Shown: positions 3,009-8,620, counted from the first letter of the stretch. The stretch: 64,000 nt of DNA from Roseibacillus sp. (GCA_965242925.1 CBDEUM010000029.1:160001-224000), one strand, 5' to 3'. Notes: a model not told the origin generated them from the sequence alone. Made by a program: numbers and translations.

Positions 3009-4145
3009 TCAGGGCAGAGCGGTGTTCGGTTTGACTGCGTTGGCCGGATATTGGCCGTTGAAGACCATCATCTGGTCCTGCGTTTCGGCCACCACGAAGG
3101 ATTCGTCAATTTTGCCGTCCTTGCCGGTCACACGCGTCAGATCGAGTTGGAGGTGCTCGGCAAGGAATGGGTAGGCAGCCGTGCGCTTGGAGAGTCCGTA
3201 GTCGTGTTTCTCGTCGGGGAAATGGGCATTGGCAACCTTGTCCCGGGCGCCATGGAGCTTGTAGATGTGCTGGACGAAAGGGAACTCGACGGCGGGGGTG
3301 TTGAGGGTCCAGTCACTGCCGTTGGATATGAGGAGTTGCGGACGCGGGGCGGCCAGGGCGGCGATCTCAACATTGTTGGTCTTGTGCGTCTTGCTCCAGT
3401 GAATGGGCATTCCGCTCTCACAGTTGCAGCCACCAAAGAAGTGAGCGGAAACCTGGCAGACCGGAATGGTCACCGCCACCCGCTCGTCGAGGGCGGAGAG
3501 AATGAAGGTCTGGGTGCCCCCTCCGGAACATCCTGTCATTCCGATGCGCCCAGGGTCGACGTTGGGGAGAGTGAGAAGGAAGTCGAGAGCGCGCATGCTG
3601 TTCCAGGTCTGCAGGCGCAGGATCTCGGGAGTGCGTCCGTGGTCCCAGCCAACTTCCTTGGAATCGCCATAGCCCATCATGTCATACTGGAAGACGGCGG
3701 CGCCCATCCTGGCGAGGACTGCGCAGCGGATCTGGCGTGATTCACGAAAGCGACCCCCGTGACCGTGTGGACAGAGAATCCCGGCCAGCTTCCCCTTGAA
3801 ATCGGTCGGACGATAAAGCGTGCCGGTGACGTAGAAACCGGGGGAGCTTTCAATGGCGACGTTCTCGGCCTGGTAGCCCTTGTGGACACGCTTCTTGTTG
3901 AAGCGCGGGTTGAGGGGGGTGCGTTCCGGGAGGGTGGTGAGCTTGGCGCCGGCCAGGATTCCAGCTTTCACGGTGGCCTTGCGCTTCTCCCAGCTGGCGA
4001 GGTCGGGGGTGGCCGCCTTGAGTCCGGCCAGTTCCTTCCTGGCCGCCTCCTGGCCATGGGCGTGGCCCTTGCGGAGCCCCTGCGCGGATAGTGGGAAGGA
4101 GACGGATGTTCCAATGGCGAAAACGAGGAGCGGCAAGGTTTTCAT
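3009..4145 (-). CDS. Secreted alpha/beta-hydrolase (acetylxylan-esterase-like)
   Basis: Signal peptide from M at 4145; LCPHGH, GCSGGG nucleophile elbow, CNCE, and C-terminal HDY. Confidence 0.85.
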
Positions 4146-4246
4146 CCCACCAGAATTGAGCTCATCCCCCTGTAACTCAAGCACGGAGATGAACACTTGC
4201 CGTCATGCGCTTGACCGTTCGGGGAACAGGAACTAGCAACCCTTGC

Positions 4247-4948
4247 GTGAAAGTATGCGCCTTTGGCCTCACGGAGATCCCGCTGGGCCAACACAACATC
4301 AAGGATCCGCGCCTCGACGAAACGCACAAGCTGGTCGAAGCCAAGAAGAAGGCCTATGCCCAGGTGGAAGTCGTGGGTGACGAAGGGTTGGTTGACTCTG
4401 ATTGTGTGGTGACCACTGAAGATGGTTTCCTGGAACTGACTTTCCGTGACGTGGATTTCATCGAGACCCGGCTGGGACGTGATCCCTCGGCTGAGGAGCG
4501 GGAGGCCTTGCTCAAGCTGAAGGGTGCCCTCGAGAGTGAAAAAACCGTTTTCGAGGCAAACCTCGGCGAGGCCGAGCGGGAGGCCCTGGAAATCCATGGG
4601 TTCAGCAGCAACAAACCGATCGTGGTTGCCACTCCCGGGGAACTGGGGGAACCGGATGCACTCATGGTCCGGGTCTTCAGGGAAAGCGGATGGATTTGTT
4701 TCCTGACGGTGGGAGGCTCGGAAAACCGGGCTTGGCCCATTCCGGGAGGGACAACGGCCTGGGAGGCCGGGGGTACGATTCATACCGATATCCAGAAGGG
4801 GTTCATCCGGGCTGAAATCATCAGCTACGACGACTTCATCGAAGCCGGGGGGGAGACGCTGGCCAAGCGTGCGGATAAGCAACGCCTCGAAATGAAGGAC
4901 TACCTGATGCAGGACTACGATTTGACGAGCTTTCGTTTTAATAAATAA
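4247..4948 (+). CDS. YchF-derived DUF933/TGS protein lacking the P-loop
   Basis: GTG start. Retains DPRL and FLTVGGSENRAW...AGGTIHTDIQKGFIRAEIISYDD...RLEMKDYLMQDYD.TSFRFN. No GxxxxGKS/T motif; 233 aa. Confidence 0.85.
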   Translation: MKVCAFGLTEIPLGQHNIKDPRLDETHKLVEAKKKAYAQVEVVGDEGLVDSDCVVTTEDGFLELTFRDVDFIETRLGRDPSAEEREALLKLKGALESEKTVFEANLGEAEREALEIHGFSSNKPIVVATPGELGEPDALMVRVFRESGWICFLTVGGSENRAWPIPGGTTAWEAGGTIHTDIQKGFIRAEIISYDDFIEAGGETLAKRADKQRLEMKDYLMQDYDLTSFRFNK

Positions 4949-5101
4949 GAATCCTCTTCCCGGCCGGAGGAAGTGAAGTGGGAGATCGAACCGGGGTTTG
5001 CGAAGATTGAGGATTCCGACGTTGATGGATCCTAAAGGGCCTTGATTGCCGGGGAGAGGCATGCAGCATCCATCTGTCCGGGGTGACGCTGGACTGGGAC
5101 C

Positions 5102-8100
5102 ATGGGACTTTCGCTTTCAGCTCCGATTCGATTTCTCCCATTTTTCCTCATGGGAGGCATTGTCGGGTTGGGAATGGCCCGGGGGGAATCGGAAGAACGG
5201 GAACCGCACCTGCGACAGCTTGAGTCCCAGTTTCGTGAGACGGTCCAGCCGTTCCTGAAGAGCTACTGCTACCGCTGTCACGGTTCCAGGAAGATGAAAT
5301 CAGGGGTGCGGGTTGATCAACTCGACCTGAGCCTTGAGGACAAGCAGCTCTTCCTCCTGCAGCACATCCACAAGCAACTGAAGGACGAGGTCATGCCCCC
5401 GGAGGACGAGCGCCAGCCGGGGGCGGAGGAGCGCCAGCTGGTGTTGGAGTGGGTCAGGCAGGCCTTGGAGGAAGGGGCTCGTAAGGTCAGTCCCAAGGAT
5501 GGCTCGGTGCGCCGACTTACCGTGGCCCAGTATCACAATACCTTGCGTGACCTGCTGGGAGTGGAAGATCATCTGGCGGATGCACTGCCTGCTGATGGTG
5601 TTTCCAAGGAAGGGTTCAAGAATAACAAGGACACCCTTCTCCTGACGCCCCAGATGATCGAGACCTACTTCGATATCGCGGAAAAGGCGCTCGACCTGTG
5701 CTTGGTCGATGAGACGAAGAAGCCTCGGATCCAGTGCTTCCGTGTTGAGCTCGGGAAGGGGGTCAACAAGAAGCCGACTGCCGACAAGCTGGTATTGAAT
5801 GGGCCCAACCTGCTGCCCAAGGCAGATTTTCTCGTGCGCCAGGTGGTCCCGGATAAGCCCTTCCCCTTTGAGCCCTTCGCCATGCGCACAAAGTTCCGCT
5901 TCTTCGAGGGCTATGCGGGAAACGGCACTGTGCGTGCCTGGAGGAATTTTGAGGGGATTTATCACAACGTCTTCGCCGCTCTGAACGGCAAGTTTACCGG
6001 CGGCCTGAACTACGGCCGCTCCTACGTGTTTATTCCCGAGGGCCTCCTCCTGCGGCCCAGGTCTCCTGAAACTCAGAACGGCAAGCCTCCGCAGCAGGGA
6101 CCGTCGCCCTCCTTCTCGATGCCGCTGCGCGAATTGCCCAGTTCGGGGATGTTCCAATTGACCGTAGAGGCGGCCCGGTATGACGACGGTTTCCAGCCGA
6201 ACTCGCACCTGTGGAAGGCCGGCGTTGGGTTCGAGCTTGATGTGAACGGTGGAAAAGGCGCGAGCCTTGAAATTCCGGCCGCGGGAGTCTACCAGCTCGA
6301 TGTCGTCCTGGAAGGCAACCCCCGGGATGACGTGATGACCGCGGACATCGGGCAGCGTACCTTTTCAAAGAGGCTGAAAGGAAAGTTCGCCAAGGGCTCT
6401 GAATCCGCCGGAGCTGGCGCTGGAAAAAGCCCCCTTGGAATCGTTATCGATGACCCCGCCGCCGACAAGGTCGGCGACTGGACAGATTCTGTCCACGGTA
6501 AGCCTTACCTCGGCAAGGGCTACATCCATGACGGCAACACGTCAAAAGGCGCCAAGTTCGTCACCTTCAACGTGAAGCTCCCCAGGACAGGGAACTACCA
6601 GGTCAACCTGGCCTACACCTACGGCAACAACCGTAGCCCGGCGGTACCGGTCGAAATTCACCACGCCGACGGAGTGGAATCGGCCAAGGTCAACCAGATG
6701 AAGCAACCACCGATCGGCGGGCTCTTCACCCCCCTTGGAACTTTCCGCTTCGAAAAGGAAAAACCGGCTATCGTGGTCATCTCCAACAAGGACACCCGGG
6801 GGGTTGTCGTCGTCGACGGCCTGCAGGTTATCGAGGAGGAAGCCGGGAAGAAACCTGCAGCGAAAAAAGACGGCAAGGAACAGAAATCTAAAAACACCGC
6901 GCGGCTGAAGAAGGGTGAGGTGATCATTCCCTTCCTCGTGGCTCGTTTTGCCAAGGGCGCATCTCCAATCAAGATCGGTAATGGAGATGGAAAGAACCTG
7001 CGACGGGTTCATGTGACCCCGGTCAGCTCTGAGAGCGAGTCGGGACGGCAGTTTGCGGCCTTCGAGAAGCGCGCTCCAACGGTGAGCGCGCATATCGGGG
7101 TCAGGACGGACGTAGGACCCAGGTCTACCCGGGTGGATCAGCTTCTGGCTGTACCCTCAGCCACGGTCGAGCGCTACAGCTTCCGCGCCCCGATCAGCAG
7201 TTTCCCCTCTCCGGAGACCGAGGAAGGCAACGCCAACTACCTCGCCGGCTTGTGGGAGATCGCCATCCGGAGTGAGCCCTCAGGCGACCGCCAGGTGCCG
7301 CGACTGCTCCTGGGCGCGGTAGAATTTGAGGGTCCCTTCTACGAGACCTGGCCACCCCGGGGACATCGAGACATTTTTTTTGCTTCAGAGCGCCGCAAAG
7401 ATCCGCCGGCCTATGCCCGGGAGGTGCTCGAGCGCTTCGGAGCGCGGGCTTTTCGCCGCCCGGTGACCCCGAAGGAGCTGGAGTCCCTGGTGGGGGTGTG
7501 GCAGAAGAGCTATGCCCGGAAACAGGACTTCCAGGAGAGCGTTCGGGATGCGCTGCTGGTGATTCTTACCTCGCCCCAGTTTCTCTTCCTGGTTGAAGAG
7601 AGCGCCGGCCCGCAGGCGGAGCCTCTCTCGCCTTATGAGCTGGCGGCGAAGCTCTCCTATTTCCTGTGGAACACTGCGCCGGATGCGAGGCTCATCGAGC
7701 TGGCGGGGGCTGGGAAGTTGGGGGCAGCTGTGCCAGCGGAGATCGACCGGCTGGTGGCGCATGAGCGCTTTCTCCAATTTACCGGAGAGTTTGTCTCCCA
7801 GTGGCTGAGCCTCGACAAGTTCGATGTCGTGAACATCAGTGGGGGAAAATACCCCCGCCTCAACCGCGAGACGAAGAGGGAGCTGCGGAAGGAGCCCGTT
7901 CGCTTCGTCACGCACCTCATCCGGTCTAATCTGCCCCTTCGCAACCTGATTACTTCCGACTTCATCGTGGCGAACGATGTGGTCGCGGGCTACTACGGCC
8001 TTGGCGGAAAGGCAGAGAATGGATACGCTTTTACTCCAGTGCGTCATGGGGGGGAGACGCTGGGAGGAGTTCTTACGCAGGCGGCCATTCTTTCCGGACT

Positions 8101-8620
8101 TTCGGATGGCAGTGAGTCCAACCCGATCAAGCGAGGGGCCTGGCTGGCGCGAAGGATCATCGGGGAGCCTCCCGCCCCGCCTCCTCCCAATGTTCCGGAA
8201 CTTCCTGGCGGGCAGGAGGCAGAGGGCAAGACCCTGCGAGAGCGTCTGGAGCAGCATCGTGACAAGGTGGGATGTGCGGAGTGTCACCGCAAGATCGACC
8301 CCTGGGGCCTGCCCCTTGAGCAATTTGACGCCGGGGGGCTCTTGAAAAAAGGCAAGGTTGATGCCCGCTCCACCCTTCCCGATGAAACGGAGATTTCCGG
8401 CACGAGTGATCTCAAGCGTTACCTGACGGAAGAGCGTCTTGACCAGGTGGCGCGGTCCTTTCTGGAGCACCTCTGTATCTATGCGGTTGGGCGCGATCTC
8501 ACCTTCAATGAACGGGAATATCTGCGGGTGGAAGGTCGTCGGCAGTTGTCAGGAAAGGGCTACCGGATGCGGGATTGTTTTCTTTTCGTAGTCCAAAGTC
8601 CCCTTTTCCTTGAGAAATGA
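5102..8620 (+). CDS. DUF1587/1592/1588/1585/1595-type protein with planctomycete cytochrome c domain and an internal golvesin/Xly-like module
   Basis: CYRCH, RRLTVAQYHNTLRDLLG, LSYFLWNTAPD, NPIKRGAW, CAECHRKIDPWG. Confidence 0.88.
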   Translation: MGLSLSAPIRFLPFFLMGGIVGLGMARGESEEREPHLRQLESQFRETVQPFLKSYCYRCHGSRKMKSGVRVDQLDLSLEDKQLFLLQHIHKQLKDEVMPPEDERQPGAEERQLVLEWVRQALEEGARKVSPKDGSVRRLTVAQYHNTLRDLLGVEDHLADALPADGVSKEGFKNNKDTLLLTPQMIETYFDIAEKALDLCLVDETKKPRIQCFRVELGKGVNKKPTADKLVLNGPNLLPKADFLVRQVVPDKPFPFEPFAMRTKFRFFEGYAGNGTVRAWRNFEGIYHNVFAALNGKFTGGLNYGRSYVFIPEGLLLRPRSPETQNGKPPQQGPSPSFSMPLRELPSSGMFQLTVEAARYDDGFQPNSHLWKAGVGFELDVNGGKGASLEIPAAGVYQLDVVLEGNPRDDVMTADIGQRTFSKRLKGKFAKGSESAGAGAGKSPLGIVIDDPAADKVGDWTDSVHGKPYLGKGYIHDGNTSKGAKFVTFNVKLPRTGNYQVNLAYTYGNNRSPAVPVEIHHADGVESAKVNQMKQPPIGGLFTPLGTFRFEKEKPAIVVISNKDTRGVVVVDGLQVIEEEAGKKPAAKKDGKEQKSKNTARLKKGEVIIPFLVARFAKGASPIKIGNGDGKNLRRVHVTPVSSESESGRQFAAFEKRAPTVSAHIGVRTDVGPRSTRVDQLLAVPSATVERYSFRAPISSFPSPETEEGNANYLAGLWEIAIRSEPSGDRQVPRLLLGAVEFEGPFYETWPPRGHRDIFFASERRKDPPAYAREVLERFGARAFRRPVTPKELESLVGVWQKSYARKQDFQESVRDALLVILTSPQFLFLVEESAGPQAEPLSPYELAAKLSYFLWNTAPDARLIELAGAGKLGAAVPAEIDRLVAHERFLQFTGEFVSQWLSLDKFDVVNISGGKYPRLNRETKRELRKEPVRFVTHLIRSNLPLRNLITSDFIVANDVVAGYYGLGGKAENGYAFTPVRHGGETLGGVLTQAAILSGLSDGSESNPIKRGAWLARRIIGEPPAPPPPNVPELPGGQEAEGKTLRERLEQHRDKVGCAECHRKIDPWGLPLEQFDAGGLLKKGKVDARSTLPDETEISGTSDLKRYLTEERLDQVARSFLEHLCIYAVGRDLTFNEREYLRVEGRRQLSGKGYRMRDCFLFVVQSPLFLEK

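Follow-up and report, generated by a model that had tools for sequence, protein, structure and literature searches.

A P-loop-less YchF derivative under purifying selection in Roseibacillus sp. and related bacteria

We analyzed a stretch of 64,000 nucleotides from Roseibacillus sp. (GCA_965242925.1 CBDEUM010000029.1:160001-224000), hereafter the window, and found that positions 4247-4948 are almost certainly a real, selected gene for a YchF derivative without a P-loop. That the product is also a functional 233-aa protein working through a ribosome- or RNA-binding mechanism is a larger statement, which as a whole we hold with somewhat better than even confidence. YchF and its relative OLA1 are among the few NTPases present in nearly all life, and both their cellular role and the purpose of their ATPase cycle are debated. 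The short protein, here called mini-YchF, appears to be a pseudo-NTPase form of this near-universal factor and appears to have replaced it in some lineages.

The gene and its relation to YchF

The gene and its neighbors are as follows.

4247..4948, plus strand: mini-YchF coding sequence, with a GTG start and 233 codons plus stop; conservation across 27 + 24 homologues begins at M1-K2
4205..4246, plus strand: upstream in-frame extension from an ATG, probably untranslated, conserved in no homologue
3009-4196, minus strand: divergent esterase-like gene, 395-aa frame, with a weak glucuronyl-esterase match (PF22244, E 5e-11)
5102-8620, plus strand: 1172-aa Planctomycete-type PSD/PSCyt protein with DUF1587, DUF1592, DUF1595, DUF1588, DUF1585, PSCyt1 and a mid-protein Golvesin_C

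Counted from the ATG, the plus-strand open reading frame (4205..4948) specifies 247 aa. The protein from GTG 4247 is 233 aa long, starts MKVCAFGLTEIP, and begins where the alignments of homologues (27 close and 24 diverse) begin. Base 4245, two bases before the GTG, is missing from contigs X5 (RNA library) and X8 (DNA), which throws ATG 4205 out of frame and leaves the frame of GTG 4247 unaffected; this one-base difference is a natural strain polymorphism. Because the homologue alignments start at GTG 4247 and because of the deletion at 4245, we took 4247-4948 as the gene. Upstream alignment of the window with the related loci L119 and L118 did not separate the two starts, the three sequences being too similar.

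A consensus scan for promoters and terminators over positions 3900-5300 found zero promoter-like sites and a single terminator-like site, which falls within the gene on the minus strand and is no more than chance would give. The elements TTGACC (4211-4216) and TAGCAA (4234-4239), spaced by 17 nt, were missed by the consensus scan and are conserved in L118 and L119. Speculatively, were these elements to act as a promoter, transcription would begin no more than a few bases from GTG 4247, giving a leaderless mRNA or one with a very short leader. In the divergent esterase-like frame, a probable signal peptide begins at an internal Met (MKTLPLLVF...), so that the true start of that gene probably lies downstream of GTG 4196.

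The protein itself divides into four parts.

4247..4417, plus strand: G-domain remnant, residues 1-57, with strands b1, b2, b3 and b4 and a short 'RLD' helix; P-loop, helix 1, switch I and switch II are deleted (hhalign mapping)
4418..4600, plus strand: inserted coiled-coil (helical) domain, residues 58-118, aligning to the YchF helical domain, with a shortened tip loop (ETRLGRDP)
4601..4687, plus strand: last G-domain strand (KPIVVA) and linker helix, residues 119-147; ATPGE stands in the place of G4 (NVxE), and the G5 segment is deleted
4688..4945, plus strand: TGS-like YchF C-terminal domain, residues 148-233 (PF06071, E 6.2e-29)

The sole Pfam match was PF06071 (YchF-GTPase_C, formerly DUF933), at residues 164-246 of the 247-aa frame; it covered profile positions 2-84 of 84 and scored 100.4 bits against a gathering threshold of 27. 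KDPRLD is present as well, so that both the conserved C-terminal YchF/DUF933 TGS region and the surviving DPRL described in the sequence-only reading are borne out. The YchF equivalog model TIGR00092 scored 103 bits, below its cut-off of 279.2, with the match confined to the C-terminus (positions 283-367 of 368), and none of the other NCBIfam models matched the window protein. Walker A (GxxxxGK[ST]) is absent from it. Identity to the genome's own YchF reaches 46% and is confined to the last 95 residues.

To locate the losses, we used hhalign to compare two profiles, one built from 24 short forms and the other from 22 full-length YchF proteins, the first of which was this genome's own. The profiles aligned over 219 columns (E 1.2e-68), and the short form proved to be about 130 residues shorter than YchF through five deletions. 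YchF residues 1-42, comprising strand 1, G1/P-loop, helix 1 and switch I, are condensed to 14 residues; 18 residues past the DxxG position (switch II) and about 23 residues past the next strand are lost; 9 residues are lost at the coiled-coil tip; and about 57 residues are lost together with the YchF-type G4 (NVxE) surroundings and G5. All five losses are in frame, separate and internal. A split gene with its G domain encoded elsewhere was ruled out, since the losses are five separate internal segments and not one block.

For motif counts, 39 short and 41 full-length forms were aligned together with MAFFT. Walker A occurs in 0/39 short versus 38/41 full-length forms, the exceptions among the latter being two that read GxxxxGR[ST] and one aberrant sequence; DxxG occurs in 8/39 versus 38/41, and a G4-like motif in 2/39 versus 34/41. 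Together with the deletions in the profile alignment, these counts show that switch I (G2), DxxG/switch II (G3), G4 N(V/M/L)xE and G5 do not qualify as present in the short form. The reported loss of G1 and switch I is thereby confirmed, and the description of G3 as reduced to GDEGLV was roughly right, in that the Asp of DxxG is replaced and the Gly kept. The helical domain is indeed shortened, as had been noted, but the G domain accounts for the greater part of the missing ~130 residues. Since the five in-frame deletions took all five G motifs, no canonical ATP or GTP binding or hydrolysis would be expected, and the motif loss predicts neither ATP binding nor ribosome-stimulated hydrolysis. 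At the sequence level the protein has the features of a pseudo-NTPase: an NTPase-derived fold, purifying selection and loss of the nucleotide-binding motifs. As a separate observation, two full-length YchF-like proteins, P0190 and P0265, carry Arg for the Walker A Lys (GxxGSGR[ST]T).

An AlphaFold2 model was built from a 27-sequence alignment (mean pLDDT 83.8, pTM 0.77). In it, five strands of the sheet remain, accompanied by a coiled coil of two helices and a TGS domain, the TGS part being only moderately confident (pLDDT 52-84 per block). In the G remnant, strands are modeled at residues 2-5, 14-18, 38-43 and 53-56 and a helix at 21-28; in the helical domain, helices are modeled at 58-76, 82-96 and 108-114, the first two of which align to the YchF helical domain and identify the inserted coiled coil. 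YchF and OLA1 structures took the top Foldseek ranks (E 1e-16 to 4e-11). With VIA-align, the model superposed on Haemophilus influenzae YchF (1jal_B) over 233/233 residues (Z 18.9, rmsd 3.2 A) and on ribosome-bound E. coli YchF (8kie_y) with Z 17.4; 11 YchF/OLA1 entries gave Z 16.8-18.9, and the next family, archaeal Obg-like GTPase, gave Z 10.6. The predicted model thus has the YchF fold and domain arrangement, and the superposition on YchF extends along the whole chain. This superposition indicates that the protein, as modeled, is a YchF with its nucleotide-binding machinery cut out rather than a TGS domain on an unrelated N-terminus.

Among known systems, the YchF/OLA1 family (Obg-family P-loop ATPases; TIGR00092; 1JAL, 2DBY, 2OHF, 8KIE) is homologous over the 219 profile columns and shares the three-domain arrangement, the C-terminal TGS, the inserted coiled coil and PDxRLD. 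Unlike these proteins, mini-YchF has G1, G2, switch II, G4 and G5 deleted or replaced, a truncated tip, a score under the equivalog cut-off and a clade of its own. Pseudo-GTPases are familiar from eukaryotes, for example the pG domains of p190RhoGAP and the degenerate septins, and mini-YchF resembles them in keeping a GTPase-derived fold under selection after loss of the nucleotide motifs. These mostly retain a full-size G domain, whereas that of mini-YchF is cut to its sheet, and here the change hits a universally conserved bacterial translation-associated NTPase. In a 2025 survey of ribosome biogenesis factors, ychF is treated as broadly conserved (PMC12641178).

Selection, assembly and phylogeny of the short form

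We compared 87 DNA copies of the gene, namely the window, 80 metagenome loci and 6 genome loci. Internal stops were found in 0/87, and the codon count was 233 in 82/87, 231 in four and 235 in one. By the NG86 method, applied to 1024 mutually non-independent pairs with at least 85% aa identity and dS of 0.1-1, median dN/dS was 0.116 for the whole gene, 0.106 for the G-domain remnant, 0.145 for the helical part and 0.09 for linker plus TGS. Between the window and its nearest copy, L119 (98% aa identity), dN was 0.0094, dS 0.12 and dN/dS 0.078, and against L118 (91% aa identity) dN/dS was 0.11. Selection maintains the coiled coil, the TGS domain and the YchF-wide PDxRLD segment, at a strength equal to that seen for the TGS. 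The proposal that the in-frame deletions reflect selection and not decay therefore stands. A decaying pseudogene remnant of a duplicated ychF, which might be suspected from a length far below that of YchF and a score below the equivalog cut-off, is refuted by the 87 intact copies, by dN/dS of about 0.1 in all three parts and by a length conserved across 28-98% identity, and we assign it practically no probability.

The window's genome is a 42-contig draft, 89.9% complete, a state in which an assembly or binning artefact might collapse a full-length ychF; this explanation, anticipated in the sequence-only reading, is refuted by DNA contigs from two other studies (X2 and X8), independent runs that are colinear over 3900-5300 with zero joints and span the gene, and by the same architecture in 80 metagenome and 7 genome loci, so that its probability is negligible. 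Contig X5 (1219 nt), from an rRNA-depleted metatranscriptome library, covers 3900-5094 and attests presence in an RNA library, which is not proof of transcription. The stretch occurs in seawater and marine metagenomes. A canonical ychF lies on another contig of the same genome (G000:C14:29694-30806; 440.9 bits with TIGR00092; GLPNVGKST), which bears out the description of the short gene as a paralogue.

Same-length homologues exist by the hundreds. The best 120 matches in a search of 5.8 billion proteins have 59-98% identity, and 100 of them are exactly 233 aa long. Names among these best matches include 'DUF933 domain-containing protein [Verrucomicrobia...]' and, at JGI, 'ribosome-binding ATPase YchF', a label that several sources use and that is probably wrong for short forms. 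An exhaustive search added 19 further representatives at 50% identity (225-238 aa, near-full-length match, 28-58% identity), of which the three named by organism are Candidatus Omnitrophota. When the 229-aa form of genome G139 was used as the query, 1451 proteins were found at E<=1e-30; source names in this 229-aa clade are Victivallales, Candidatus Scalindua japonica ('GTPase, probable translation factor'), Brocadiaceae and Planctomycetota, alongside scattered MAG labels from other phyla, of uncertain reliability. Look-alikes in the ESM Atlas form clusters of 230-233 aa and are commonest in Omnitrophota and Verrucomicrobiota. A TGS-pattern search of genome contigs returned mostly full-length ychF, with short forms at 7/80 loci (L019-L024, L090). 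In the full-text literature, subscription journals lying outside its coverage, we found no description of a P-loop-less or DUF933-only YchF. As the sequences are already in public databases, the novelty lies in recognition of the family.

A maximum-likelihood tree of the 39 short and 41 full-length proteins was computed from 233 shared columns (IQ-TREE quick mode, LG+C20). A branch with SH-aLRT 100 sets the 39 short forms apart, all of them in a clade separate from full-length YchF, with the caveats that quick-mode support is less reliable and that columns beside the shared deletions may draw short forms together. Within that clade, 10 other Verrucomicrobial forms group with the window protein (support 100), and this group is nested in a 14-row clade (support 100) with Omnitrophota G262 and G266 and one MAG labelled Margulisiibacteriota. 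The 229-235-aa architecture is one well-supported group and occurs in Verrucomicrobiota, Omnitrophota, Victivallales and anammox Planctomycetes. Mini-YchF is an old, single-origin family that databases name only 'DUF933 domain-containing protein'.

Occurrence with and without full-length YchF

Of 201 genomes sampled evenly across the window's phylum, eight carry the short form (G000, G189, G142, G085, G139, G088, G178 and G140). Two of them, the window's genome G000 and G189, are among the 67 genomes of the window's class, and both have a canonical ychF too; in the window's own family the short form is present in 0 of 17 other genomes. The Verrucomicrobial MAGs G203-G205 likewise have both forms. 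In Verrucomicrobiae the short form is thus a paralogue beside canonical YchF. Its patchy occurrence in the class, together with its nesting in the tree, suggests that it was acquired there horizontally.

A different picture emerged from G085, G139, G088, G178 and G140, which belong to three other families and are 91-97% complete. No protein in any of these five genomes scored above the TIGR00092 cut-off; the best match in each was the short form's own TGS domain (74-98 bits), and the remaining matches, at <=48 bits, fell on N-terminal G-domain positions in other open frames. Within family f33, G085, G139 and G088 have the short form only, G064 the full-length form only and G142 both. G142 may be a mixed bin, since its two forms lie on contigs under 2 kb (C337 and C328) of a 360-contig bin.

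Among 81 sampled genomes of Omnitrophota, the phylum of MAG G201, six have the short form, 69 have full-length-type matches only and six have none. Each of the 6/6 carriers, for which no completeness figures are given, has exactly one match. MAGs G201 and G202, also given without completeness figures, have the short form only. The short form is therefore the only YchF homologue in 11 sampled genomes, in addition to G201 and G202. When 16 genomes with two matches were searched again, the second matches proved to be the coiled-coil part of the same full-length gene, and G004 has two full-length genes; extra short forms were thereby ruled out in this set, besides the already-scored G142. Separately, the Omnitrophota loci L105-L112 contain at least three full-length YchF-like kinds (GLPNVGKST, about 365 aa; GLEQSGKTT, 351 aa; GFPGCGKST, 339 aa), and in three Omnitrophota genomes (G255:C95, G277:C189 and G281:C26) two YchF-type genes lie about 1.2 kb apart.

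One history that would account for this distribution is that a nucleotide-free YchF replaced the ATPase YchF in several lineages (among them some of the Omnitrophota, one Victivallales-like family plus two further families of Verrucomicrobiota, and perhaps anammox Planctomycetes) and later moved horizontally into some Verrucomicrobiae. We regard this scenario as a serious possibility that falls somewhat short of probable.

The proposed role and its alternatives

We propose that mini-YchF is a nucleotide-independent ribosome- or RNA-binding factor, a role that, by analogy with YchF, we consider modestly probable. The protein retains the three-part YchF layout of a G-domain beta-sheet core, an inserted coiled coil and a C-terminal TGS, and would use the acidic coiled coil and TGS domain that it has kept to bind ribosomes or RNA in a stoichiometric manner. 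In doing so it would perform the nucleotide-independent part of the work of YchF, occupying a ribosomal site and modulating subunit association or the handling of stalled ribosomes. Release would be set by abundance or competition and not by ATP hydrolysis, as expected for a passive factor without a nucleotide switch. RsfS, the ribosome silencing factor, is a small, nucleotide-free protein that binds uL14 and hinders subunit joining at the 50S interface. It offers a possible working analogy to mini-YchF, although its fold and family are unrelated.

The retention of the acidic coiled coil and of the TGS makes docking on ribosome or RNA plausible. According to a study of the E. coli protein, YchF binds the 50S subunit at uL14, bL19 and H62, mainly via its helical domain; helices 4 and 5, which are acidic, are turned towards the basic surface of uL14/bL19, and the lysine tip K149, K152, K156 and K159 contacts H62 (PMC11814078). 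Its authors consider that the ATPase activity probably serves release and not binding, and they propose that the TGS contacts small-subunit h5 on stalled ribosomes and that a nucleic-acid-binding cleft lies between the helical and TGS domains (PMC11814078). Elsewhere, E. coli YchF is described as cross-linking to IF3 via N20 in helix 1 (PMC8138138). Several of these contact elements are lost in the short forms: helix 1 and the helix-7 region are deleted, and the lysine tip is truncated. At the median, the coiled-coil tip numbers 13 residues and 2 K+R in short forms, compared with 22 residues and 7 K+R in full-length forms, so that the conserved basic tip, with its equivalents of the four E. 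coli lysines, is not seen in the short forms. The known binding modes of YchF may therefore not be carried over, and the loss of the lysine tip, helix 1 and helix 7 contacts implies that affinity, and perhaps site, must differ from those of YchF. Co-folding mini-YchF with uL14 and bL19 of the same genome, run without controls, gave a score of 0.00 (mark 0.32), which speaks neither for nor against binding.

TGS domains can also make contact at the CCA end of tRNA. Those of RelA, Rel and DRG align to residues 148-233 of mini-YchF with Z 6-8; DRG/Rbg1 and RelA/SpoT differ from it in being active enzymes with another domain context and 9-23% identity. In Rbg1 and RelA, the TGS contacts rRNA or the tRNA 3' end (PMC11814078).

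The same losses of lysine tip, helix 7 and helix 1 would fit a protein whose conserved TGS/coiled-coil cleft has nothing to do with the 50S site of YchF and instead binds, for instance, tRNA or a different RNA, DNA, or a protein of the stress response; the nucleic-acid-binding cleft proposed for YchF is in keeping with this, and so is the company of uvrA. In a soil and peat subclade (~60-65% identity; L120-L197, L019 and L021), uvrA lies directly upstream on the same strand in 45/81 loci, counted among those with >150 nt of upstream flank (median gap 20 nt), and a large TPR protein lies downstream in 38/87 sequences (86 loci and the window searched). Because these contigs are related to one another, the uvrA/TPR linkage is lineage-level synteny and not many independent observations. 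The uvrA linkage is moreover limited to this one group and absent from the window, whose own neighbors are shared only with L119, a 98%-identical marine contig; across clades the neighborhood is neither conserved nor translation-related. The residues conserved in short forms are mostly also conserved in YchF itself, which argues for a retained YchF-type partner. We therefore judge a non-ribosomal role unlikely.

Distribution bears on the suggestion, made in the sequence-only reading, that mini-YchF serves as a decoy for canonical YchF or regulates it. Such an antagonist, with a role specific to Verrucomicrobiae, would compete for a shared ribosomal or protein partner or heterodimerise with YchF, acting as a hydrolysis-dead inhibitor. 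It would find its target in G000, G189, G203, G204 and G205, where full-length ychF coexists with the short form; its TGS is 46% identical to that of the genome's own YchF, and patchy presence in 2/67 genomes of the class fits an accessory regulator. As the general role of the family, the suggestion does not survive: the short form is the sole YchF homologue in the five carriers from other classes and in 6/6 Omnitrophota carriers, as well as in the two MAGs without completeness figures, so that antagonism cannot be the ancestral role. The truncation of the lysine-rich tip that anchors E. coli YchF to the 50S at H62 (PMC11814078) also makes equal competition there doubtful. We consider the antagonist reading quite unlikely.

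The nucleotide-independent ribosome- or RNA-binding factor is the reading we consider most likely, and the family has consequences for annotation as well as for function. Calls of presence or absence of the 'universal' YchF that rely on the C-terminal domain or on automatic names can mislead, and a dedicated family model would correct the misnaming. The short form, from which every nucleotide-binding element has been removed while strong purifying selection maintains what remains, offers a ready-made test of the nucleotide-independent functions of YchF. If replacement of the ATPase form in several lineages is true, the core job of YchF would need neither ATP binding nor hydrolysis, and the short form would be a natural separation-of-function allele of a protein whose role has been unclear for decades.
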